Virus record (IMG/VR): IMGVR_UViG_2740892427_000001
Length of the DNA stretch: 64,000 nucleotides
Direction: 5' to 3' (one strand)
Source of the DNA: a virus
Lineage: Duplodnaviria; Heunggongvirae; Uroviricota; Caudoviricetes
Shown here: positions 2,237 to 56,399 of the stretch, one piece after another
Layout: each line of letters starts with the position of its first letter
Position numbering within the stretch: position 1 is the stretch's first letter
Translations under genes and position numbers: made by a program
Notes under the pieces: model-generated
What the model saw: the letters and a program-made list of their open reading frames with translations, nothing else
Database searches by the model: none
Told to the model about the DNA's origin: nothing

Positions 2237-2297
2237 GTGTTTTTCTCTTATCGTTTAGTTATTACATTCTTACACAAATTAAGTAAGTATTTACCTA

Positions 2298-3983
2298 TCA
2301 TTTAACGCGTTTGAAAACGTATACGCTGACTGTGATCCCTGTGTCTTCAAACTCGTTGGTAAACGACTTCCCTCTGGCATAAACGTAATTATCCATCGTC
2401 ATCCAGTCCAGTATTGGCGCAGTGCCCGGCAATACTGCTACAAGACGCCCGCCGACTTTCAGATGCCCCAGCGCAGCCAGCGTGTGCTCTCTATGACGAC
2501 CAAGCGAGTACGGCGGGTTCATAACGATTTTGTCGAACTGATAACCTACGTTGTCCTCAGACCACTTTATGAAGTCGCAGCAAATCGTGTTCGTATACCC
2601 TTTTCCGCGCAGGATATCAGCGAAGAGAGGTGCGATTTCTATGCAGGTAACATCTTCCAGATCGGCGTTAATATAGGCCAGAAGATCCCCACGTCCGGCT
2701 TGAGGCTCCAACAACTTCTCACCAGGCTTCAATTCAGTGGCTCTGGCAACGTACTCAGCAATCAAGCGTGGGGTAGGGTAGAACTGGTGTGATTTTGTAT
2801 CCGGTATTAAACCGGTAGCCACAATCGTATTTAGCGTATGGCCGATCTCATACGGGAACTGCCAGTGCTTTTTCTCCTGCACGCCGCCAATGAAGCTCAG
2901 TGTGCGCTCAAGCTCTTCCACCTGCGACTTCTGGAGAGCTGAATCAGAGAAGTACCATACGCCTTTGTCTTTGCTAAATCGCCCGTCACGAAGCGCAGTG
3001 CGAACCGGCACGGAGATCGTCTTCTGGATTAACCCGAACTGCTTTGGTGCCCGTGTTTTTGGCGCAGTTCGGCATGGCGCGGGAATTGCAGCAGGCATAC
3101 TGTAAGCCAGCACCTCATTCAACTTCCAGGCCACGTCAGGATGTATTTCAAAGTGAACGTTGCCGTTCTTGAACATCTTCACGCGCATCAGATTTCCATC
3201 GACGTTCATCCAGTCACCGGTCTGGCAGTCGTTTGCCCGATACGCAGCTGATAGCACCTCAGCAGTGCGGTTGATGGTAATAAATTCTTTGTGCGCGAAG
3301 AAATGAAGCAAGACACGCAGATCGTCGATATAGTCCTCTTTGCGATAGTTCACACTAACGCTGTCCCGCCAGAAATCAGAAATGCAGTCAGCGATTATCA
3401 GACGTTCGCTGAAACCGTTTGTCTTATTTGTCTTGTGCGCAGGACTCAGCGCCTTAAACAAGCCATACACGCGCTCAGAGAGATATTTGTGCCTGTCATT
3501 CAGCAAATTAAGCATCGTGGGTATGACCGTTTCTGCTTTGAACTCCGGTACACCAACGAACTCTTTAACCTTCATCTGGTAGCCGGTTCTGTCAGTTTTG
3601 ATGACTTCCTGTTTGCCCTCTATAAACTGCTCGCGCCACTCATCTCGACGGGAAGCTGGCATGATCAGCAAAACGTTAGTCATGTCCGTGACCTTCCTCC
3701 AGTACTCGGCCCAAATATTCTGTTTCACCCATTCCAGATCGACTTTATCCAACCAACCTCGATTTAAACGCGAGCGATCTTCATCTGGTCGATGGTTTAG
3801 TCTCAGCAGGCGATTAATCATGTTGTGGCGTTCGTCGCCATAAACGAAGTCGTGTACCTGATACATGAAGGCGATCTCTTTCTCGCACTCGGCCACAATT
3901 TCGTGGATGACGTTCATTTCCTGCCGATAGTCGATAGCAGTGTTTGAGTTGGCATCGTCGATGATGGAAAGGGCTGTATTCAT
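2298..3983 (-). CDS. two-domain protein: N-terminal domain of unknown function fused to C-terminal SAM-dependent DNA methyltransferase domain
   Basis: C-terminal third contains LEPQAGRGDLL (SAM-binding-like) and IVMNPPYSLG ((D/N)PPY catalytic motif of N6-adenine/N4-cytosine MTases). Confidence 0.65.
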   Translation of the reverse strand: MNTALSIIDDANSNTAIDYRQEMNVIHEIVAECEKEIAFMYQVHDFVYGDERHNMINRLLRLNHRPDEDRSRLNRGWLDKVDLEWVKQNIWAEYWRKVTDMTNVLLIMPASRRDEWREQFIEGKQEVIKTDRTGYQMKVKEFVGVPEFKAETVIPTMLNLLNDRHKYLSERVYGLFKALSPAHKTNKTNGFSERLIIADCISDFWRDSVSVNYRKEDYIDDLRVLLHFFAHKEFITINRTAEVLSAAYRANDCQTGDWMNVDGNLMRVKMFKNGNVHFEIHPDVAWKLNEVLAYSMPAAIPAPCRTAPKTRAPKQFGLIQKTISVPVRTALRDGRFSKDKGVWYFSDSALQKSQVEELERTLSFIGGVQEKKHWQFPYEIGHTLNTIVATGLIPDTKSHQFYPTPRLIAEYVARATELKPGEKLLEPQAGRGDLLAYINADLEDVTCIEIAPLFADILRGKGYTNTICCDFIKWSEDNVGYQFDKIVMNPPYSLGRHREHTLAALGHLKVGGRLVAVLPGTAPILDWMTMDNYVYARGKSFTNEFEDTGITVSVYVFKRVK

Positions 3984-4086
3984 AATTGCACCATTAAGAA
4001 GTGATTTGTTTAATGGTGCAATTATTTCAAAAATGAAAAGGTACTAAATAGAAATAAACAGGCAATCCTTCAAATAAAGGCATTGG

Positions 4087-4985
4087 CTAATCATACTTGG
4101 AGGTATTTATCACCAGAATTTTGTTTGTATAAATCTTCTTAATATCCCATGTGACATTACCGGAATACCATTGACCGTTATATACTTGGTTTCCAGTTGC
4201 ACCTGTCATTGTTACATAGACAGGTCTGTCGTAATCGGTTCGTCTATAGTTATATACCCCAACCATAGCAGGCATTACCGCACATGGATACCCCATATCT
4301 ATTGTAAATTGAGGGTCAGAAATAGTGATAAGTTTCGCATCAAGGGGCATCATCTCACCGTGATACACCATTGCGCCTGCGCTGTTATACATGGCAATGC
4401 CATAGCCAGAATGTGGTAACACCATATCAGAAAAAGCATAAACTATTATTGTTCCGGGGCTACCATTTACCTGATGCAATCTGAGAGCATTGTATCCGTT
4501 ACTATGCTCATGAATAAACATCATGTTCGCCTTATTACTGCTTTTTATGAAGAAAAAGCATGATTTGTTTGATGGGATTGATGTTTGAAAAACAGAACCT
4601 TTAGATGCAGACATTGTCCCTTTATTAATCAGATTTTGCGGAGTAAATTCTGGACTCATCCACAAACTTCCATCTGATTGAGTAATTGACATCCCGAACA
4701 TAATTATCCCCAGTATGTGTATATGTAAGAACCAAGCCCCGTATATAAATTTGACCAACTAACCGTATTTCCATTAATAGTAACATTTGGAACAGGTAAA
4801 TTGATGTAGTTGTCGTTGTTAAGAGGCATTAATGACCACACGGCATGTAGTGATTTACCCGGTGGCGGATTAGAGTACGTCTTAGAGCCTGATGACGCCG
4901 TAAATCGATCAAGAAAAAAAATAGGTGTAAGGAAGCCAGTAACGTTAATTCCTTTATTGTTGTAAATCCCTGTACCGTATGCCAT
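4087..4985 (-). CDS. Asn/Gly/Tyr-rich hypothetical protein in AT-rich DNA, split into two overlapping frames (4704..4985 and 4087..4758) by an apparent frameshift
   Basis: two same-strand ORFs overlap at 4704-4758; adding one base in the C4 run 4737-4740 joins ...SNLYTG to AWFLHIHILGIIMFGM...; downstream ORF only has a TTG start. Confidence 0.35.
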
Positions 4986-5039
4986 TTTTCACCCTTGTTT
5001 TTATCAACACAATATGGCCGATCATGCGGCCATATCAGA

Positions 5040-5609
5040 TCAATTAGAGCTTTGAAAGACTTTGTGTGGTTGTGTTGCGAGGTTATGTCGATGGCTTAAC
5101 TCACGCATCATGTCTTCAAGGCGACTCTTTGTGTCGTCGAGTTGGTCGGCCATTGCTCCCAAAAGCTGACGAACGGCCATCGGATCATCGCTGTTTAGTG
5201 ATGGCATTTTATAACCCGCCTGAGAAGACATAAGATTGAACGCAGACATCAACATCGTTAGAGAGGATTTAAGCCCAGCAATTTCACGATCTTTGCTGGC
5301 AATAATCGCCTCACTCTTGTTAGTGTCATCAGTTCGTTGAGTCTCGCTCACCATATCCAAAGTCGCCTGCAACTTATCAGCGCGCTCTTTTTCAGCAAGA
5401 TAATGAACACCGAAATGATGTGCTAAAGCTACAACCTGAGTTGGCTCTTCAAAGGTGGACTCAAAATTAAGTGCTGTAACCACTCTCTCAAATATGGAAA
5501 CGTCTTCTATTCCTCGAAGAATGGCTAACATTTTGACCAGTTCATTAGCATCCATTTCTTCGAATAAGGCGTTTTGTTCATCAGCTATCGCTTTGCATTT
5601 CTTGCACAT
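5040..5609 (-). CDS. hypothetical protein (189 aa)
   Basis: ORF with AGGAAAAACAC-ATG initiation region and AAACAAGTTGTTT palindrome upstream. Confidence 0.6.
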   Translation of the reverse strand: MCKKCKAIADEQNALFEEMDANELVKMLAILRGIEDVSIFERVVTALNFESTFEEPTQVVALAHHFGVHYLAEKERADKLQATLDMVSETQRTDDTNKSEAIIASKDREIAGLKSSLTMLMSAFNLMSSQAGYKMPSLNSDDPMAVRQLLGAMADQLDDTKSRLEDMMRELSHRHNLATQPHKVFQSSN

Positions 5610-5906
5610 GTGTTTTTCCTAATGCTTAAACAAGTTGTTTTCTTATTGGCTTTATTGTGATGTGGCATAAAAGGGGAGCAAGCTAAACGTAAAGGTGCAA
5701 ACTCTCTATTTCGGTCAACGAAACACAAGGGCCATTTGGCCCTTGTCATTAACACGTTGCTTTACGGACTAGCGGATAAGCGAAGTAGATCGCCAAACCA
5801 ATGAGGACGCCATCAGAAATGACAGACATCATCTTTCCCGTAAAATCCACCAACACCGCCATCACCAGAAGAGCAATGACGATCACAAGCCGGAATCTCT
5901 CAAGCA

Positions 5907-6332
5907 TTAGAGATAAGCATCCAGTGACAACTGAAGCGCCTGGGCGATCTTTTTCAGTGCCTGCTCTTCTTGTTCACCAATGCCATCCTGATCGGCAATA
6001 TCAAGGCACAGACACAGAACATCGACCGCCTCTGGAGTACCCGCAATATCAGAAAGCTCACGAATAGCCTGTGCATTAGCAGAACGAGGGGACGCTTCGT
6101 AACGAGCACGGATATTGGCGCTCATTTGGGCAATTTCACCAGCAAACGGAGAAAACGCAGGCAGAGCTGCAATTGTCTTCTCAAGAATGGCAATTTCTTT
6201 TGCGTCACATGTGCCGTCGGCATAGGAGATCATGTACGCGCCCCACACGGTGGCCTCAACCGCATCACGGTTCTCCATTTTTTTGACTTCGATAACTGCT
6301 TTACGAGTTTTCTTTTTGAAGAAACCTAACAT
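5907..6332 (-). CDS. TerB-like protein (tellurite-resistance TerB domain family)
   Basis: duplicated ...ADGxxDxxE... pattern (YADGTCDAKEIAILEK; IADQDGIGEQEEQALKKIAQALQL) typical of TerB. Confidence 0.5.
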   Translation of the reverse strand: MLGFFKKKTRKAVIEVKKMENRDAVEATVWGAYMISYADGTCDAKEIAILEKTIAALPAFSPFAGEIAQMSANIRARYEASPRSANAQAIRELSDIAGTPEAVDVLCLCLDIADQDGIGEQEEQALKKIAQALQLSLDAYL

Positions 6333-6425
6333 GTGTTTTCCTTTTGTTATTTGTCAAAACAAGTTGTTTTATAGTTTCATAAATTGCTTACGCAAAGATG
6401 GTCAATGCATATGCACTAACAGCCG

Positions 6426-6614
6426 TCAGAAATAACCAAGTACCGAACCGACTGGAAAAACAAAAATCCCAACTACACGAGCCAAGGTCATGCCAGCCTG
6501 AAACTGGAGATCGCCAGAGCAAACAAGTTTTATAATGTTCGATACCCAACCGGCGGCCATGAGGGCAAGAATTGCCAGCCAAATTTTTCCAAAGTGATTT
6601 GAAAACCAGTTCAT
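6426..6614 (-). CDS. small hydrophobic membrane protein (62 aa)
   Basis: two predicted TM segments; alternative overlapping frame 6388..6618 looks less protein-like. Confidence 0.4.
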   Translation of the reverse strand: MNWFSNHFGKIWLAILALMAAGWVSNIIKLVCSGDLQFQAGMTLARVVGIFVFPVGSVLGYF

Positions 6615-6623
6615 ACAACCGCC

Positions 6624-7118
6624 TTAGTCACAGCATGATCCTGAGTAACCGGATGAACTTGAGGTATCGCATCCACCGTCATCCCATCCAGAGTGACAGG
6701 ACGCTCTACTGGAGTGGTGGTAATTGTCGTCGACGGAGGTGTGGTGATGGATGAACCCGGCATCAAAAGGCTCTGGCCGGCTGGAACGGCTACCGTCGCC
6801 AGTGAAACTATAATGAGAACGTAGGCCATTGGTTTCAGCCTCTTTCTTTGAAAATTTTCCATTCGAACTGTCCTTGTTGTTTTTCTCCTTCACTAAAGGC
6901 CGTGTACTTTTCGCTTCGCGTGAAGAACCAGAGGCAACAATCGCCCCCACGTTCGCAACAACTGACGCTTGATTATCTAAACGTTCATTCAGCAACCGAA
7001 CGGTAGTCTCTAGTTCATCAAGACGTGACATAACACGACCGCTAAACAATTCGGCCAAAATTTGACGTAAAGAACGAGGACGTTTAGTTGCAGAAGTGAA
7101 ATAGGTTTGACGTGCCAT
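6624..7118 (-). CDS. hypothetical protein; C-terminal half overlaps another frame (6611..6862) that encodes a signal-peptide-bearing Thr/Pro-rich product
   Basis: N-terminal ~80 aa look protein-like, C-terminal part is low complexity; the true gene structure here is unresolved. Confidence 0.3.
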   Translation of the reverse strand: MARQTYFTSATKRPRSLRQILAELFSGRVMSRLDELETTVRLLNERLDNQASVVANVGAIVASGSSREAKSTRPLVKEKNNKDSSNGKFSKKEAETNGLRSHYSFTGDGSRSSRPEPFDAGFIHHHTSVDDNYHHSSRASCHSGWDDGGCDTSSSSGYSGSCCD

Positions 7119-7147
7119 GTGGACTCCATCCAGTGTCAGAAAGAGTT

Positions 7148-7169
7148 GCGGCTGGCGATTGCCAGCCGC
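7148..7169. other. stem-loop GCGGCTGGCgattGCCAGCCGC
   Basis: 9-bp perfect stem upstream of gene 6624..7118. Confidence 0.45.
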
Positions 7170-7263
7170 CTTTCTCGTTCCATCCTGGAACTGTGTCTTA
7201 CCGACACATTGTCATCCTGACGCTGATAAGATACATGATTTAAAATGATAGGTAAACACTTAC

Positions 7264-7857
7264 TTACTGCTTGTTATAAACAAAACCAATATCTTTCTTG
7301 TGAGGCATATCTGCTGCTGAAAAAGCTGCGATCTTCGCGAGTCGATCACATATTTCATTTTCACGATGCCCGGCGTGACCTTTAACCCACTTCCAGCGAA
7401 CATTATGTCGACTTGCGGCCTCATCCAGACGTTTCCACAGATCAACATTCTTTACCGGTTTTTTATCAGAAGTCATCCATCCATTACGTTTCCACCATTT
7501 CATCCACTGTGTCATGCCGTTTTTCAGATACTGGCTATCAGAGTACAAAATAACGTTGCATGGATATTTCAAACGCTCCAGCCCGATAAGTGCGCCCATC
7601 ATCTCCATGCGGTTATTGGTGGTGCTATGAAAACCATCTGAGAACTCGCGTTCCTCACCACGATACTGGAGAACGATACCGTAACCGCCCGGGCCACCCG
7701 GATTTTTAAGGCAAGAGCCATCACTAAAGATTTTCACGGTTTTGAGCTGGGGATTGAACTCTACGACAGGCGTTGTGGGATTGGTGCGGGGAGAATTTTT
7801 GTTTTTGGCTTTTTTGCGAGTTTTTGCTTGCGATCGGGCTGGTGTCTTCGTCGTCAT
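7264..7857 (-). CDS. rnhA: ribonuclease HI with Lys-rich N-terminal extension
   Basis: [16 protein letters not shown]...MEMMGAL...YSDSQYL...[18 protein letters not shown] match RNase H catalytic core; start moved to ATG 7857 with AGGAG 7 nt upstream. Confidence 0.85.
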
Positions 7858-8439
7858 ATAAACTCCTGAATCAAGCGCCGCGCCGATTTTTTCCTCGCGC
7901 GTGCGCACACGCGTGCGTGTTAATAATTATTAAAATAAACAAATTACTTCCCAGAACAGGTTTTTATAAACCTGAACTGAACGAACGAAGTGAGTGAAGT
8001 TCACCTCGAACGAAGTGAGAGGTTGTCTTTTCAGGTAATACTCTCCCAGGGAGGTGAGTATAAAATTCCTCACCAACCTGGTCGTTTCATAACCTGAAAA
8101 GCTATGGTCTAAGTCTACTGCCAGCTTAGACTTGGGAAGTTATGGATGACAGCACCCCAGAACCGAGATCTTCCCACACTTTATGAAGGGGAGTACTGGA
8201 TTCAACCTCTCGAAACACCCCAGACTCGACAATCATAAAGTGACCCTTGTCTCTGCTCACTTTGGTTCCCCCTTCCCCGACACCTATACGGCACCGGTTC
8301 TACGCTGGTAGTGAGCTTTTTTAAACCTGACGCCAGTGACGCTTACCCCCACCCATCAGGTCGAGCCTCCAGTCTACGACTGGAAACTATCATATCTTAG
8401 CACTTACAATTCACTTTATGAATAGTTTGTACTTATCTA

Positions 8440-8694
8440 TCATTGTGATTGATTATTTTCTCGACCATGTAGTTGAACATTCAAGGCAAACACCTCATTG
8501 ATCAACTCACCTAAAAGCTGTTCAACAAGTTCGCGATGCTCTCCAAGATGCAAGCACTTAATTGCCCACTCGTACAAGTTGAAAGCCTGCTCACGATCTT
8601 TCATCATTTCACGAGCCTGGGCCAGAAAATCGCTCTCTACGAGCGCAACGACATTAGTCGGGTATGACATGTTGGTTTCCTTAAAGTGGTTCAT
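8440..8694 (-). CDS. hypothetical protein (84 aa)
   Basis: ORF. Confidence 0.45.
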   Translation of the reverse strand: MNHFKETNMSYPTNVVALVESDFLAQAREMMKDREQAFNLYEWAIKCLHLGEHRELVEQLLGELINEVFALNVQLHGRENNQSQ

Positions 8695-8773
8695 AAAATC
8701 GATTTTAAAGCGTCTGGGAAGGGGTTCTAGTGGATTCTGTAGTGATGTTCAGGTCTGGAGTCTCTGATACAAA

Positions 8774-8834
8774 ACAGCCTGCTTCCGTATATTAATAATT
8801 AATATGTAGTTATTTATATATACAGAAGCAGGCT
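8774..8834 (-). terminator. long stem-loop AGCCTGCTTCCGTATAT-n23-ATATACAGAAGCAGGCT just downstream of the Dam gene
   Basis: 17-bp arms, AT-rich loop, U-rich tract follows on the minus strand. Confidence 0.5.
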
Positions 8835-8855
8835 AATTACAGACGCCAGAACAAA

Positions 8856-9449
8856 CTAAGCAGCCTTCTTTGATGGTCTTTTTTTCCTGATCACATTCGC
8901 AGGATCATACCCTCCCAGACTTTTCATGACGTCCAAAGGGATCTTGCTTATAGAGTGCCCAGCGTCCTGACAGAATCCTCGAAAAACAACGAGCATACTG
9001 CCACCGGGGTTGATGTTTACTTCTACCTGACCCAAATTGACGTCAGGCTCGACAAACGCTACGCGGCCACCAGACAGAATAATCGTCTCATTCGCATACT
9101 CTGTTGCACGCTCATACCACTTTGTATCGAGGGATTGAGGAATTAGCATCACTGTTGTAACTCCGCGAGCCTGCTCACGTATAGCAGCATCAATCCAGGG
9201 GGAGATTTTGGAGTAGGGTGGATTGAGGAAGGCAATTGTACCTGGCTGTCCCCATTCAGATTTCAAAGCATCACGCTCAATGCCTATGAAATTAGGCAGC
9301 TTTGCGTTGTCCTTGTTGCAGGCAACGTCAACATCAAATGTCACTCCAAGATAACGTTGAATGGCAGAAAACAGCCAATCAGGTGTTCTCCAGAGGTCAC
9401 GAAGAGAGTTGTCGCGCTTTCGCTGTTTGATTTTTTCGGCTGCAATCAT
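8856..9449 (-). CDS. phage-type DNA N6-adenine methyltransferase (Dam-like)
   Basis: LNPPYSKISPWIDAA motif and ~200-aa size typical of small phage Dam enzymes. Confidence 0.75.
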   Translation of the reverse strand: MIAAEKIKQRKRDNSLRDLWRTPDWLFSAIQRYLGVTFDVDVACNKDNAKLPNFIGIERDALKSEWGQPGTIAFLNPPYSKISPWIDAAIREQARGVTTVMLIPQSLDTKWYERATEYANETIILSGGRVAFVEPDVNLGQVEVNINPGGSMLVVFRGFCQDAGHSISKIPLDVMKSLGGYDPANVIRKKRPSKKAA

Positions 9450-9525
9450 CTTCTTTCTCGATAGGTAAGTGATTACCTATTTTTGCATTTGATTTTATGT
9501 CTGGCAATCAAATAAAACGCGCCAG

Positions 9526-9553
9526 AAATGCAAACGAGAAGCTCTCTGGCGCG
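9526..9553. terminator. bidirectional terminator CGCGCCAGA-loop-TCTGGCGCG flanked by A/T runs
   Basis: 9-bp GC stem, TTTTT on both strands. Confidence 0.6.
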
Positions 9554-9632
9554 TTTTTGTGGTGCTGGGTATGTGATTGGCTTACCCAGCACTATAAAGC
9601 TCTCTATGGGCTTTATTTTCAGTAGGGGAACG

Positions 9633-10442
9633 TCATCCAATAGTGTACTCCGCGACAAACTTCTTAACGATCGGTGATTCTTCGTTCAATGTTAGATTTC
9701 CACCGTCTCTAACGGCAATTCCTGTCGCTGGAAATACAGCCATCATTTGCCCAGCCTGAGTTGACGCAGTGTTAAGCGGATACGGTTTTTCTGGATTGCT
9801 CATTAAAGCAATCTTAATACTATTACTTGTAGCCTTCTTTTCTGTGAGAAGGTGTCTCATGGAAATTACCGTGTAAACACTAATATCTGGACCTCCGCTA
9901 AACCAATTAAGAAGGTTTAATATCTTATCCTTTGCTTTGACAGGCGCGTTATCGTAAGCGTCTAAGAAAATATCTTTTTCTAAGCCCGCTTTATTGAAAA
10001 ACGAATCATCTTTATCACTTAAAGTAAAACGAGGACCTCTTGCAGTACGAGCTTTTTTATTTGTATTGCTATCATTTGACTGTTGAACTTTTAATTCATC
10101 ATTAACCTCAACACACTCTTCAACCTCAATAAATCCCAATTGTTCTGGCTCGTTTTCGGCAGATTCAACACTTTCAGCGTTAATTACGTTTATAGGCTCA
10201 TGCGCTAACTCCAACTCATTTAAAGCAGAGCTGAAATCACCTGCTTTTTCTTCATTGAACAGTTCTTCGGCAACATCATCAGAACTCATGGCTACGCCAG
10301 CATCGAGGCCGAGCAGCAGATCGTCAATATCATCAGTATTTTCAACCTGTGCGGCTTTCTTTACTGGTTCATCAAGTGATTGCAACATGGCTGTCAGCTC
10401 GTCCAGATCATCATTTGTCATTACATTTTCAACCGAACTCAT
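9633..10442 (-). CDS. highly acidic hypothetical protein (269 aa)
   Basis: N-terminal ~130 aa strongly Asp/Glu-rich (DDLDEL..., NEPEQLGFIEVEECVEVNDE). Confidence 0.55.
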   Translation of the reverse strand: MSSVENVMTNDDLDELTAMLQSLDEPVKKAAQVENTDDIDDLLLGLDAGVAMSSDDVAEELFNEEKAGDFSSALNELELAHEPINVINAESVESAENEPEQLGFIEVEECVEVNDELKVQQSNDSNTNKKARTARGPRFTLSDKDDSFFNKAGLEKDIFLDAYDNAPVKAKDKILNLLNWFSGGPDISVYTVISMRHLLTEKKATSNSIKIALMSNPEKPYPLNTASTQAGQMMAVFPATGIAVRDGGNLTLNEESPIVKKFVAEYTIG

Positions 10443-10600: not shown

Positions 10601-11155
10601 TTACACAATTTCAGAGGGTAATTTAAAAAATCCGTACTTATTACGTGCCTTAAAGAAGCATTGCATCATTAAGTTTGTGTCATATAAGGCACTATGTGCT
10701 TTGGCATGATCGTATATAAAGCCAAGAGAGAAGGCCAACTCTTCAAGGCGGGGACGTTTACCGTCTTCTGTGGCCCACAGGGAAAATATAGTGTCAATCA
10801 ATGGGATGTCTGGAAGCGAAAAACCGTAACTTTTCAGCTCATGCCTAATAAACGGAATATCGAACGCTTCGCCGTTGTGGGCTATCCAAATATCGGAAGA
10901 AGAGAGATACGAAGCGACAGATGAAGCGTGATCGGCTAGTAACGGCTCGGCGGCTAAATCTTCAAGACTGATGCCGTGTACCGCTTGCGCTTTCGGATCG
11001 ATACTGCGACGCGGGTTGAACCGCATTACAAAACTATCAACCATTGTCTGTGTCTCCAGTTCATAGCGGGTAATTGCGATTTCAATAATTTTATGACCAG
11101 CAAGGAAATCCAGTCCCGTAGACTCGATATCGATGCCTGCAACAATCGTTGTCAT
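10601..11155 (-). CDS. DnaQ-like 3'-5' exonuclease (DEDDh, Pol III epsilon-like)
   Basis: Exo I GIDIESTG, Exo II HNGEAFDIPF, Exo III HSALYDT. Confidence 0.8.
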   Translation of the reverse strand: MTTIVAGIDIESTGLDFLAGHKIIEIAITRYELETQTMVDSFVMRFNPRRSIDPKAQAVHGISLEDLAAEPLLADHASSVASYLSSSDIWIAHNGEAFDIPFIRHELKSYGFSLPDIPLIDTIFSLWATEDGKRPRLEELAFSLGFIYDHAKAHSALYDTNLMMQCFFKARNKYGFFKLPSEIV

Positions 11156-13177: not shown

Positions 13178-14281
13178 TCACACCGCCACTGGAACCTTGA
13201 TCCACGGTAGAGGGTCATAGCCAAGAATTAAAACCTCGTCCCATTTGAAATCATCCAACTCTGACCATTCATGAGGGAAAATAACGACCGGATCTGAATG
13301 CTCTGGAGCCTGTCGTTTCATTAGCTCACACACACCTTCCATGTGGTTGTTGTACAAATGCACGTCAAAGCCAAAATGCACAAATGCACCGGCCATGTGA
13401 CCCGTAATCTTCGCGAGAAAATGAGTGAGAATGCCATAGCCAGCAATATTGAATGGCATACCAACAAAAGTGTCTACGCTACGCTGTACGAGGCAGGAGT
13501 TGAGGATGCGTTTGGGGATTCCAAGTTCATCCAGTTCAGCTTCAGTAACACTGCCGTCCATCTCCAGATCGTATAGCATCTTGGTGTAGATAGACTCGTA
13601 ACCGAGGCGACTGTGTTGAAGACCAATGTCAGTTGCCATCGTTAAACGGGTTTCAAAATCCAGCTCACGACTCCACAAAGAGAAGACAAAGTGGCAAGGT
13701 GGCAGTTTCATATCCTCAAGCTCGCCTACGTTCCATGCGTTAAGCATGATGCGACGATCGGTAGGGTTCGTGCGCAGTGTATCGACAATACGCTGTAGCT
13801 GATCGATTTCACGGGACAGCACTACGCGATCTTCACTGATACCCAGGTATCCCTCGACTTTGTACCCGCGTTCACGGAAAGTAGCGATCTTGCTCAGATA
13901 TTCACTATGGCTCACGATGCGGGTATCTTCCCATCGACGCCACTGCTTACCGTAAACCGGCCCCAAATCGCCATTCTCATCGGCCCATGCATCCCAAATC
14001 TTAACGCCGTTATCCTTGAGAAATTGGATGTTGCCCGTGCCTTTCAGATACCACTCAAGTTCGACAAGTAGTGGCTTAAGATTTACCGCCTTTCCAGAAA
14101 TAAGCGGCACAGTCCCACCAGTAAGCATGTAGTAAGAGGGAACGTAGCAGGTGCTTAAAGTGCCAGTGCCTGTGCGATCATCAGCCTGCACGCCGCTTTT
14201 AAGCACCGTCTCAATAACTTTTGCATACGATGCGTTTGTTACCTGACCGTTCGTATGCTCTCGATTCAAAAGGAGTGACAC
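13178..14281 (-). CDS. thyA: thymidylate synthase (ThyA family, extended 367-aa form)
   Basis: DRTGTGT, DLGPVYGKQWR, catalytic LPPCH, PFNIAGYGILTH, GYDP; roughly 100 aa longer than E. coli ThyA. Confidence 0.85.
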   Translation of the reverse strand: MSLLLNREHTNGQVTNASYAKVIETVLKSGVQADDRTGTGTLSTCYVPSYYMLTGGTVPLISGKAVNLKPLLVELEWYLKGTGNIQFLKDNGVKIWDAWADENGDLGPVYGKQWRRWEDTRIVSHSEYLSKIATFRERGYKVEGYLGISEDRVVLSREIDQLQRIVDTLRTNPTDRRIMLNAWNVGELEDMKLPPCHFVFSLWSRELDFETRLTMATDIGLQHSRLGYESIYTKMLYDLEMDGSVTEAELDELGIPKRILNSCLVQRSVDTFVGMPFNIAGYGILTHFLAKITGHMAGAFVHFGFDVHLYNNHMEGVCELMKRQAPEHSDPVVIFPHEWSELDDFKWDEVLILGYDPLPWIKVPVAV

Positions 14282-14365
14282 AAAAACCTCACAAAGATAA
14301 GTAATTACTTATTCATCGTGTGAGTTTACATTCATTGAGAGAACAAGACCAGACAGATAAAAAAA

Positions 14366-19002: not shown

Positions 19003-19036
19003 ATGTTAATAGATAAGCACTTACCTATCAATGAAA

Positions 19037-30433: not shown

Positions 30434-30501
30434 GTGTTTTCCTATGTGGTTGTTATGCGAAAATAATAAGTAAGTACTTATATATTTTCAAGAGATAAAA
30501 A

Positions 30502-35167: not shown

Positions 35168-35284
35168 GTGTTTCTCCTTGTTGTGATTTGGCCGATGGCG
35201 CTATGCGCGTTGGGCTTTCGTTCATTCGTGGCTCTTTCGAGCTGTTAAATGATAGATCAGTACTTACTTATTATCTATCAAAAA

Positions 35285-36964: not shown

Positions 36965-37148
36965 AGCATCGTTGGTTTGCAAGACAGACCTTATGTAAGC
37001 AGTTTTAGTAAAGCAGTCTCAGTTCAGTGTTATCTTCTGATTTCCCTTCTTCGTGAGTCTCCTCCTTAAGTGCCTAAGTAAGTCCCAATCTATACAGATC
37101 AAATTCTCGCCGCACTATGTGGCTCACAAAATTAAGAAGGTAATATCT

Positions 37149-37364
37149 ATGTCTAATAAAATGACTGGTTTAGTAAAATGGTTTAACTCTGATAAAGGCT
37201 TTGGCTTTATTTCTCCTGCTGATGGCAGTAAAGATGTTTTTGTACATTTTTCGGCAATTCAGAGTAATAATTTCCGCACTTTGGAAGAAGGCCAGCAGGT
37301 CGAATTCTCTATCGAGAATGGTGCTAAAGGCCCAGCAGCAGCAAATGTCGTTGCTCTAAGCTGA
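37149..37364 (+). CDS. cspA: cold-shock protein, CspA family
   Basis: [23 protein letters not shown]...[10 protein letters not shown]...[20 protein letters not shown]: RNP1/RNP2 cold-shock-domain motifs; start set to internal ATG 37149. Confidence 0.9.
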
Positions 37365-37639
37365 TTCAACGCTGATGATCCTCATTTCTACAATAACGAA
37401 GACGGTGTAAGCCTGAGTGGATAGATTTGTAGGATTGTACAAGTTGAATAAATTAGCATGGTAAGGCCATGCTAATTAAATCGACACAACGGCCAGTTTA
37501 TTCCATAAAAGTGAATTGCCCATTGTGGCGAAATGCGGGGTTGCCGCATGAATAGTCAAAGGCAGAAGCTAACTGCCGGCATGGCAAAACAAAGTGCGTA
37601 AGAGGAGTGACTTCCTCAACAAGCGCCATAATTCTTTAT

Positions 37640-42590: not shown

Positions 42591-42685
42591 GCGTTTTTCC
42601 TTTGTTTTCTAATGAGCGTTCAACTTCTTATATAAATATATCATTATCTATCGTAAGTGGTTACTTATCGTTAAGGCTGTTTTGT

Positions 42686-47865: not shown

Positions 47866-47952
47866 TGGCGGAGAGTAATGGAATCGAACCATCATCGCTT
47901 GCGCAATGGGACGGTTTTCAAGACCGCTTGAGCACCATGCTCCCTACTCTCC
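47866..47952 (-). tRNA. tRNA-Ser (anticodon UGA), class II with long variable arm, encoded CCA
   Basis: manual fold: acceptor GGAGAGT/ACTCTCC, anticodon loop CUUGAAA, T-loop GGTTCGATTCC. Confidence 0.7.
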
Positions 47953-48050
47953 AGCTATTGTGATGGTCGGTGCTGAACTCCGACACAGGGTTGTAGCAAG
48001 CCCCGCAAAGCGCGCACTACTGTAGTTGCGGCACATCAGCCTGTGCATTC

Positions 48051-48133
48051 ATCACAACGGTAAGATCACTACCTTTCGACCAGTCATTGTGCACATGAAC
48101 GACGATTAACCGTAATGATCTTATCGTTGTGTT
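48051..48133 (-). other. imperfect long stem-loop in tRNA spacer
   Basis: arms atcacaacggtaagatcact / aatgatcttatcgttgtg. Confidence 0.35.
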
Positions 48134-48180
48134 GTGAAGCCAGATGCTTATCTTCTGGTTGCTTCAAAGAGCTGCACTTC

Positions 48181-48271
48181 CTCACAACGGTAAGAGCACT
48201 GGTCTGACTCTATCGATTTACGGGCTTGTGGGTCAGTATCGCCGATTCGCCCAATGCTCTTACCTGTTGTG
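48181..48271 (-). other. imperfect long stem-loop immediately 3' of tRNA-Thr
   Basis: arms ctcacaacggtaagagcactgg / ccaatgctcttacctgttgtg. Confidence 0.4.
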
Positions 48272-48272
48272 T

Positions 48273-48348
48273 TGGTGCCGGTTAACGGGATCGAACCGCT
48301 GACATCCTGCTTACAAGGCAGACGCTCTACCAACTGAGCTAAACCGGC
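48273..48348 (-). tRNA. tRNA-Thr (anticodon UGU), encoded CCA
   Basis: GCCGGTTTAGCTCAGTTGGTAGAGC...CUUGUAA...GGTTCGATCCCGTTAACCGGCACCA. Confidence 0.8.
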
Positions 48349-48352
48349 AATT

Positions 48353-48439
48353 TGGTGGGGAGTGATGGAGTCGAACCACCCGAGTCGCAATGACAGTAGA
48401 TTTACAGTCTACCCCGCTGCCCCTACGGACTAACTCCCC
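48353..48439 (-). tRNA. tRNA-Tyr (anticodon GUA), long variable arm, encoded CCA
   Basis: anticodon arm GTAGACTGTAAATCTAC, T-loop GGTTCGACTCC, acceptor GGGGAGT/ACTCCCC. Confidence 0.8.
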
Positions 48440-48444
48440 TAAAT

Positions 48445-48519
48445 TGGCGATGGTGGGTGGATTCGAACCACCGACCAGTTGGTTAACAGCCAACTGCTCT
48501 ACCGCTGAGCTACACCATC
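48445..48519 (-). tRNA. tRNA-Asn (anticodon GUU), encoded CCA
   Basis: GATGGTGTAGCTCAGCGGTAGAGC...GTTGGCTGTTAACCAAC...GGTTCGAATCCACC. Confidence 0.8.
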
Positions 48520-49107: not shown

Positions 49108-49311
49108 GCGTTCTGCAATCACACTCGCTCAGTGTGTCCCATTTCGGTAACGAGGCTGGAAACTGACCTCGCTGGTGTTTGGCTTATTAGGCTACTGCCA
49201 GATAGACTTCTTCGTTTGCACTTGTATTTAAGTTCAAACAGTCGCGTCTCAACGAAAACAAAGTCATCTTATACATAAAAGATAAGTAAGTAAATACTTA
49301 TCATGATGTTT

Positions 49312-52762: not shown

Positions 52763-52837
52763 ACAAACTCCTAGCTAACAGATGAAAGTATTCTTACAGA
52801 AAGATAAGTAATCATCTACTTATTTTATCGGCACTTG

Positions 52838-56234: not shown

Positions 56235-56341
56235 CTGGTAGGTAGTTACTTACTTATCACAATGAGCGGATGATAGCGACTGGTGGCAGTTTTTGGAAGT
56301 GGAAACGGAAGGGAATGTATCTGGGAAGTCAGCAGAGAAAA

Positions 56342-56399
56342 GACCTGCTTCCGTATAAATAATAATAAGTAACTTAGTATTTATATACAGAAGCAGGTC
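56342..56399 (-). other. long stem-loop GACCTGCTTCCGTATA-n26-TATACAGAAGCAGGTC, paralog of 8774-8834
   Basis: shared 14-bp arms with the same G-U-compatible mismatch in both copies. Confidence 0.5.

Follow-up and report, generated by a model that had tools for sequence, protein, structure and literature searches.

Phage-plasmids of the SSU5 type are common among clinical isolates of Escherichia, Shigella, Salmonella and Klebsiella, and resistance genes are found on them (PMC9600943; bioRxiv 10.1101/2025.09.12.675607); few anti-defence systems were detected in them by a DefenseFinder screen (bioRxiv 10.1101/2025.09.12.675607). Orphan methyltransferases are a prominent class of plasmid leading-region genes, and one of them was shown to protect its plasmid on entry (PMC11541004, PMC7736820). 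The plasmid methyltransferases M.EcoGIX and M.BceJIII are single-strand-specific enzymes of the β-class with a DPPY motif (Fomenkov et al. 2020, PMC7736820), and for the phage enzymes M.EcoT1Dam and M.EcoVT2Dam the specificity is G(m6A)TC/GATC, where m6A is N6-methyladenine (PMC4996451, PMC6602927). Here, we analyzed positions 2298-10442 of a 64,000-nucleotide viral sequence (IMG/VR record IMGVR_UViG_2740892427_000001; the whole stretch is denoted as the window), in which a 561-amino-acid (aa) methyltransferase, a 197-aa Dam-family methyltransferase, and a 269-aa protein with an acidic N-terminal half are encoded. Over its whole length, this region shares 98.8% identity with Escherichia phages CMS-2020a and Cyrano, and over part of its length it shares ~83% identity with Salmonella phage SSU5. 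The gene order in the window agrees with the CMS-2020a/Cyrano and SSU5 records. Based on the nucleotide identity and gene order shared with Cyrano-like phages and SSU5, we assign the window to an SSU5-type phage-plasmid.

The best joint explanation, which we consider fairly probable, is that the three genes are three separate things carried on a phage-plasmid, namely a phage Dam, a DUF4942-fused orphan methyltransferase, and a winged-helix protein of the replication module. A sequence-only reading of the window had described the three open reading frames (ORFs), which were present as described in an ORF check and all lie on the minus strand, and had joined them into an anti-restriction-like arsenal. 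Its observation was confirmed and its interpretation was partly supported: the two orphan adenine methyltransferases stand, and on present evidence the acidic protein is not a candidate DNA mimic. To judge from a recurrent palindrome, copies of which precede ThyA and Dam and follow RNase H and the 561-aa methyltransferase gene, the acidic gene, Dam and the 561-aa gene belong to separate expression units rather than to one system, and unrelated genes lie between the two methyltransferases.

The 561-aa protein matches phrog_6263 'DNA methyltransferase' with an expectation value (E) of 9e-300. In an alignment of 25 relatives, ranging from 92% down to 33% identity and from Enterobacterales to Variovorax, the full architecture is kept, and the motifs HQFYPTP, LEPxAGxGD and NPP(Y/F) occur in the order X, I, IV. 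The AlphaFold (AF2) model, with a mean predicted local distance difference test score (pLDDT) of 82.6, presents the class I Rossmann methyltransferase fold, and this catalytic fold with the X-I-IV motif order is shared by M.TaqI, M.BseCI, CamA, and Type I HsdM. The family profile matches EcoR124II HsdM and M.TaqI (E ~2.5e-4) as well as an adenine-specific DNA methyltransferase, the mad2 and Type II methyltransferase (MTase_II) models of PADLOC match the protein, and M.TaqI and CamA show the highest identity among the structural matches (25-27%). In the structure search, 150-190 residues at most could be aligned to M.TaqI, M.BseCI or HsdM. The catalytic domain is confined to the C-terminal third of the protein, where the sequence-only reading had placed the NPPY core, and the ~70 residues that remain after NPPY finish the Rossmann sheet in the model. 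Considering that the protein ends there, a C-terminal target-recognition domain is missing, and no specificity gene was found nearby. In contrast with enzymes of the M.TaqI/HsdM type, which have such a domain or a separate specificity subunit, the 561-aa protein carries a DUF4942-containing module of ~390 aa before its catalytic domain. Neither methyltransferase gene is adjoined by a restriction endonuclease or specificity gene, based on the ORFs, the annotation, and the PADLOC restriction-enzyme models searched against the flanking genes; the neighbours encode membrane proteins, proteins of unknown function, RNase H, and Ea22-like and winged-helix proteins. By this gene content, both methyltransferases are orphan (solitary) enzymes, and the 561-aa product is an orphan N6-adenine methyltransferase, its catalytic identity being assigned by sequence and predicted fold.

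The large N-terminal domain that the sequence-only reading had pointed out is now accounted for in part by a match to DUF4942 (Table 1). In the family alignment, W95, R164, R171, H183-T185-N186, D221-L222-R223, H277 and H281-P282 are invariant within the N-terminal module. When the N-terminal part was searched alone, every homologue was the same fused protein of ~555-570 aa or a fragment of it, and a profile search of solved structures gave no relative of the module. Since it is always fused to a catalytic domain that lacks a recognition domain, we infer that the N-terminal module (DUF4942 plus a small α/β domain) may supply DNA binding or target selection.

Relatives of the 561-aa protein are abundant on plasmids, at least 5000 PLSDB records matching it in whole or in part, and the DUF4942 methyltransferase family is thus very widespread on plasmids. 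IncHI2 plasmids encode full-length relatives with the same architecture at 31% identity. On the IncHI2 plasmid pCFSAN001068, the full-length DUF4942 methyltransferase lies two genes from a Dam-family methyltransferase (L006, 3349-4161 and 5944-7635), the same enzyme pairing as on the phage-plasmid. In IncF leading regions, the catalytic domain occurs alone as a 187-aa 'class I SAM-dependent methyltransferase' (SAM, S-adenosylmethionine) at 33% identity, which differs from the window enzyme in lacking the N-terminal module and in having NPPF instead of NPPY; its neighbours are an antirestriction gene, DUF1380, DUF3560 and DUF932. In phages, the same catalytic domain forms part of very large proteins and of a protein whose annotation is Lar-family restriction alleviation. 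A literature search returned no published activity for any DUF4942 methyltransferase or for the IncHI2 and IncF relatives, and no functional data on the methyltransferases of pHCM2 or SSU5. M.EcoGIX and M.BceJIII resemble the window enzymes in being orphan methyltransferases on mobile elements; they protect the element when it enters a new host, and so illustrate what such an enzyme can achieve without a classical partner. A homologous relationship between the 561-aa enzyme and M.EcoGIX, the best-studied example, was rejected, because M.EcoGIX is of the β-class with DPPY, whereas the window enzyme has the X-I-IV order and NPPY. By analogy, M.EcoGIX is a functional analogue of the 561-aa enzyme and not a homologue.

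The 197-aa protein passes the thresholds of two curated families, PF05869 (E 5.4e-38; 130.8 bits with a threshold of 28.1) and NCBIfam TIGR01712 'phage N-6-adenine-methyltransferase' (113.6 bits with a cut-off of 97.05), and the Dam catalytic (D/N)PP(Y/F) motif is present as NPPY at aa 76-79 (window 9213-9224), so that the earlier Dam-like label was correct. Using tblastn, Dam homologues were located in 1550 phage records, including Shiga toxin (Stx)-converting and other lambdoid phages at ~39% identity. The window Dam resembles the phage Dam enzymes in being small, orphan and equipped with NPPY, although it is merely 25-39% identical to the copies of lambdoid, Stx and T1-like phages and differs from the family in the phage-plasmid-specific palindrome over its promoter. 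By its family assignment, it is an ordinary orphan phage Dam. M.EcoT1Dam and M.EcoVT2Dam are presumably members of the same PF05869/TIGR01712 family. Its most likely activity is the formation of G(m6A)TC in the DNA of the element itself. The gene appears to have its own promoter, overlapped by the operator-like palindrome. GATC avoidance as a sign of restriction pressure was rejected, as the 281 GATC sites in the window correspond to an observed/expected ratio of 0.87.

The third protein is bipartite. The sequence-only reading had described it as strongly acidic, and while this holds for the whole chain (isoelectric point (pI) 4.27) and above all for residues 1-130, with 35 Asp/Glu versus 6 Lys/Arg, the C-terminal half (residues 131-269) is basic with a pI of 8.85. 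Structure prediction, which that reading had proposed as a check, yielded a confident winged helix and a disordered acidic half, with pLDDT values of 28-64 over most of the latter and below 50 for aa 84-132. In the predicted structure, a helix-turn-helix core is followed by a β-hairpin wing. A diverse family alignment shows, in order, an amphipathic acidic helix of the DLDxLLxxLD type, a variable acidic linker, a basic patch, and the winged helix. The acidic part is indel-rich and varies in length and sequence, with its acidity retained. K173, N176, S188, Y190, T225, Q229 and Q232 of the winged helix are invariant, and K169 and a basic residue in the wing are conserved along with K173, T225, Q229 and Q232. 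Among 123 distant members, the median net charge of the N-terminal part is -23 (pI 4.17) and the median pI of the C-terminal domain is 9.27, and with a strict pattern 53 of the 123 show a motif of the [DE]L[DE]x[LM][LMF]xxL[DE] type.

The nearest folds of the winged-helix domain are the ArsR(/SmtB), MarR, Fur, PadR and TubR regulators, to which the sequence identity is 0-15% and which it does not join by any Pfam match. Unlike these regulators, the 269-aa protein has a long acidic disordered N-terminal arm, and none of their sensory or dimerization domains was detected in it. No match was obtained in Pfam, NCBIfam, PADLOC or PDB, and the PHROG matches are of 'unknown function'; single-sequence and profile searches of PDB returned only spurious low-complexity matches (dihydroorotase and p300), and a fold search of BFVD returned merely weak matches to unnamed phage proteins.

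A first homology search found the acidic protein solely in SSU5-like elements, whereas an exhaustive profile search identified at least 670 representative clusters at E ≤1e-3, with 289 at E ≤1e-10. The members are all stand-alone proteins of ~210-330 aa that align over most of their length and show the same bipartite charge pattern. Among annotated phages, the family is limited to genomes of ~105-122 kb, which comprise SSU5-like elements, Pseudomonas Nickievirus, Rhizobium RHEph10-like phages, and Stenotrophomonas phages. The neighbourhood of a DnaQ-like exonuclease gene and the acidic gene is kept in SSU5, nickie, RHEph10 and BUCTxx99. In RHEph10 the acidic gene directly follows the DnaQ-like exonuclease, and in Stenotrophomonas phage BUCTxx99 the order is thymidylate synthase, AAA ATPase, a hypothetical gene, the exonuclease, a few small ORFs, and the acidic gene. 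In nickie, the acidic gene closes a block of dnaE, the single-stranded DNA-binding protein (SSB) gene, exonuclease, RecA, SbcD/SbcC-like, RuvC, nrdA, nrdB, thyA, dihydrofolate reductase, kinase and dnaQ, which is collinear with the gene order of the window. As this position is kept across phages from four host groups, including phages that are not phage-plasmids, the gene at 9633-10442 is, by synteny, a core gene of the replication/nucleotide-metabolism module in a wide clade of siphoviruses of ~105-120 kb and not an accessory counter-defence gene. A role as a general partner of phage DnaE was rejected, since DnaE homologues occur in 1214 phage records, versus ~30 for the acidic protein. Pseudomonas phage nickie (55000-104000) and SSU5-type phage-plasmids have a long collinear replication/nucleotide-metabolism module in common, which points to a deep relationship of these phage-plasmids with a clade of siphoviruses of ~110 kb that infect Pseudomonas, Rhizobium and Stenotrophomonas.

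The palindrome that separates the three genes, ATARGTAA-N4-TTAYYTAT (ideal form ATAGGTAAGTACTTACCTAT), gave 32 matches over both strands with at most two mismatches, corresponding to 15 intergenic loci, versus 0.27 matches in shuffled sequence. All copies are intergenic and lie 2-131 bp upstream of minus-strand gene starts, and the genes just downstream include Dam, ThyA (at a distance of 12 bp), the ribonucleotide reductase α subunit and a gp32-like SSB. The Dam-proximal position is kept in SSU5 (L002, 12509-12528) and, directly before Dam, in a distant SSU5-like contig (L008, 1253-1272), and the copy at the RNase H stop codon is kept in SSU5 (L002, 10256-10275). The layout is comparable to the scattered C1 operators of P1, and the set is probably the operator network of a regulator; candidate repressors of the element are the helix-turn-helix repressor next to the integrase and the S24 LexA-like protein. 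Neither 49 kb of phage nickie nor 10 kb of RHEph10 contains the motif, and for this reason the regulator seems to be phage-plasmid-specific; the palindrome as a binding site of the acidic winged-helix protein, which both of these phages encode, is unsupported. In the literature searched, including that on SSU5 operators, no description of the palindrome was found. Between RNase H and ORF 6624-7118, a strong GC-rich hairpin of 9 bp with T-runs on both strands (7148-7169) resembles a bidirectional terminator.

With respect to function, the 561-aa enzyme would depend on its permanently fused N-terminal module for DNA binding or site choice, and both enzymes would methylate the phage-plasmid DNA before packaging, which would render the premethylated DNA refractory to those restriction enzymes of the next host that cut the same sites. 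Such self-protective methylation by both enzymes, with its putative substrate, recognition sites and protective effect, is plausible. Both methyltransferases are ordinary for mobile elements; being conserved and orphan, they could help SSU5-type elements to cross restriction barriers, and the sites that they methylate would help to predict host range. Our working model of the acidic protein, which is founded on its predicted fold, conservation and synteny, is a DNA-binding adaptor or regulator. The winged-helix domain would bind DNA, for which its basic pI and the conserved K169, K173, T225, Q229, Q232 and basic wing residue are indirect indications, and the acidic disordered arm, with the amphipathic helix at its tip, would recruit or regulate a partner in phage DNA replication or its control. 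This partner might be a replisome or host protein, or else the protein's own DNA-binding surface, which the arm would mask.

Several points weigh against this reading of three separate genes and the roles given to them. The full-length structure search of the 561-aa protein, which its catalytic domain dominated, returned no fold evidence for the DUF4942 module, and the best structural matches include the rRNA m6A methyltransferases METTL5, KsgA and Erm, which makes an RNA substrate conceivable. Winged helices can bind protein rather than DNA. Since a Dam is already present in E. coli, that of the phage may have its role in replication, packaging or regulation and not in protection. In SSU5-like elements the acidic gene always adjoins Dam, and thus some link between the acidic protein and methylation is conceivable.

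It is possible, if on the unlikely side, that the methyltransferases serve the element's own biology, through replication timing, packaging control, mismatch-repair escape or epigenetic switching. GATC methylation at the P1 pac site is a precedent for packaging control, and because enterobacterial hosts already methylate GATC, a second Dam would be less protective. The operator-like palindrome over the Dam promoter, as found for many replication genes, and the conservation of both methyltransferase genes across SSU5-like elements, where they are not variable, are consistent with such a role. On the other hand, the leading regions of plasmids contain relatives of the 561-aa enzyme next to antirestriction genes, a location linked to entry protection (PMC11541004, PMC7736820), and own-biology and protective roles are not exclusive.

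For the acidic protein, a phage-specific transcription factor seems rather unlikely. Its winged helix would recognise promoters that are conserved within the clade and its acidic helix would contact host RNA polymerase, in analogy to T4 MotA or acidic activation domains. This would agree with the nearness of the fold to ArsR, MarR, Fur and PadR regulators, with the conserved N-terminal amphipathic acidic motif, and with a putative recognition helix that is near-invariant across phages of very different hosts, as expected for a clade-conserved DNA target. However, a search of 49 kb of nickie that covered palindromes and not asymmetric promoter boxes yielded no recurrent site, the one strong recurrent palindrome of the window is unlikely to be the site of this protein given its absence from nickie and RHEph10, and the gene is located at the end of the replication module and not beside other regulators. 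A wider proposal, which we regard as unlikely, has two separate parts. The acidic family, with its at least 670 clusters, would be unrecognised, widespread and a core factor in replication or expression across a large clade of ~110-kb siphoviruses and phage-plasmids of the SSU5 type, its N-terminal acidic peptide capturing a conserved host or replisome component. The DUF4942 module would confer an unusual targeting on a methyltransferase that lacks a recognition domain, for example replication-coupled or low-specificity, as for M.EcoGIX.

That the 561-aa enzyme methylates RNA (rRNA or tRNA m6A) and not DNA is improbable, despite the rRNA enzymes among its structural matches. The sequence profiles and PADLOC models match DNA enzymes first, M.TaqI and CamA have the top identity among the structural matches, and homologues are located in the leading regions of plasmids and next to a gene of the Dam family; moreover, the fold is common to all Rossmann m6A enzymes, so that the ranking by fold discriminates weakly.

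Least of all do we expect an Ocr/ArdA-like DNA mimic in an arsenal with both methyltransferases, a view that follows the likeness to DNA-mimic anti-restriction proteins which the sequence-only reading had seen in the charge pattern of the acidic protein: the family-wide acidity, the adjacency to Dam in SSU5-like elements, and a Tad2-like anti-defence gene in a distant SSU5-like contig, which shows that the stretch between the methyltransferases can hold counter-defence genes there, are outweighed by an acidic half that is disordered, indel-rich and length-variable instead of a rigid charge-patterned fold, by a conserved part that is a basic winged helix, by a core synteny with dnaQ that extends to phages without an adjacent Dam and is unlike that of typical accessory counter-defence genes, and by the lack of similarity to any anti-restriction or defence-related model or solved structure searched. 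T7 Ocr and ArdA share their strong negative charge with part of the acidic protein only, and they are compact folds whose surface carboxylates imitate the DNA backbone, whereas the sole confident fold in the window protein is the basic winged helix to which the acidic half is joined. The label of anti-restriction candidate should thus not be propagated for this protein, which belongs to the core of a broad clade of phages and is uncharacterised.

Table 1. Coordinates of the predicted features in the window.
Feature	Position	Strand	Details
Predicted orphan methyltransferase, 561 aa	2298..3983	-	DUF4942-containing N-terminal module, small α/β linker domain, C-terminal N6-adenine-type catalytic domain
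Catalytic Rossmann domain, aa 396-561	2301..2798	-	HQFYPTP 399-405, LEPQAGRGD 425-433, NPPY 489-492 (window 2508-2519)
DUF4942 (PF13708) match, aa 140-295	3099..3566	-	within the ~390-aa N-terminal module; E 1.6e-20, 74 bits vs 25
Accessory/housekeeping genes between the methyltransferases	4087..8694	-	two membrane 'moron' genes, phrog_5508, TciB-like DUF3927, TerB/TciA-like, two small ORFs, RNase HI, phrog_5343
Phage Dam-family N6-adenine DNA methyltransferase, 197 aa	8856..9449	-	PF05869, TIGR01712, NPPY
Acidic winged-helix protein, 269 aa	9633..10442	-	N-terminal half acidic and predicted disordered, C-terminal winged-helix domain basic; final conserved gene of the replication/nucleotide-metabolism module
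Predicted winged-helix domain, aa ~140-266	9645..10025	-	β-hairpin wing, 'GTAxSQxGQ' helix
Acidic region, aa 1-130	10053..10442	-	short conserved amphipathic helix (DDLDELTAMLQSLDE, aa ~11-25), then variable acidic linker
DnaQ-like 3'-5' exonuclease	10601..11155	-	upstream neighbour of the acidic winged-helix gene; PF00929 E 3.9e-22
Palindrome loci 1-8	2279-2298, 7248-7267, 9461-9480, 14293-14316, 19009-19028, 23693-23712, 28513-28532, 30466-30485		
Palindrome loci 9-15	35252-35271, 42632-42651, 49282-49301, 52804-52823, 56238-56257, 56365-56384, 60972-60991		
Palindrome copy abutting the stop codon of the 561-aa methyltransferase	2279..2298		43 bp upstream of the next gene (1532-2236)
Palindrome copy over the RNase H stop codon	7248..7267		upstream of the strong hairpin (7148-7169) and ORF 6624-7118
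Perfect palindrome copy ATAGGTAAGTGATTACCTAT	9461..9480		12 bp upstream of the Dam ATG, over a sigma-70-like -10 element; operator-like

The stretch between the two methyltransferases differs between Cyrano-like phages and SSU5, and none of its genes in the window matches a PADLOC defence model. The distant SSU5-like contig keeps the order of acidic protein, Dam, other genes and DUF4942 methyltransferase, with different intervening genes; among these is the Tad2-like gene (anti-Thoeris family; L008, 3992-4309). Judging by this gene content, some lineages may have a counter-defence hotspot between the two methyltransferases. A two-gene cassette on the minus strand (4087-4985), which encodes phrog_425 'membrane associated protein' and phrog_557 'outer membrane protein', shows ~78% nucleotide identity with phages JenP1, JenP2 and BRET, and in its place SSU5 has an anti-repressor gene. 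The pair looks like an exchangeable moron cassette.

Further along the window, a full-length Rfam match to the cspA thermoregulator was obtained at 36971-37389 on the plus strand (187.6 bits with a gathering score of 78), which suggests a cspA-like cold-shock gene with its 5' untranslated region beside the DNA polymerase III α gene. This region is shifted by ~1 kb relative to Cyrano, suggesting an insertion. The thymidylate synthase of 367 aa (13178-14281, minus strand) is labelled ThyX in Cyrano, yet its match is to the ThyA family PF00303; as the Pfam model of 266 positions aligns in two stretches, the protein appears to contain additional sequence compared with the family model. Four tRNA genes, Ser-tga, Thr-tgt, Tyr-gta and Asn-gtt, are located at 47866-48519 on the minus strand, whereas the annotation of Cyrano lists Asn, Thr and Ser only.

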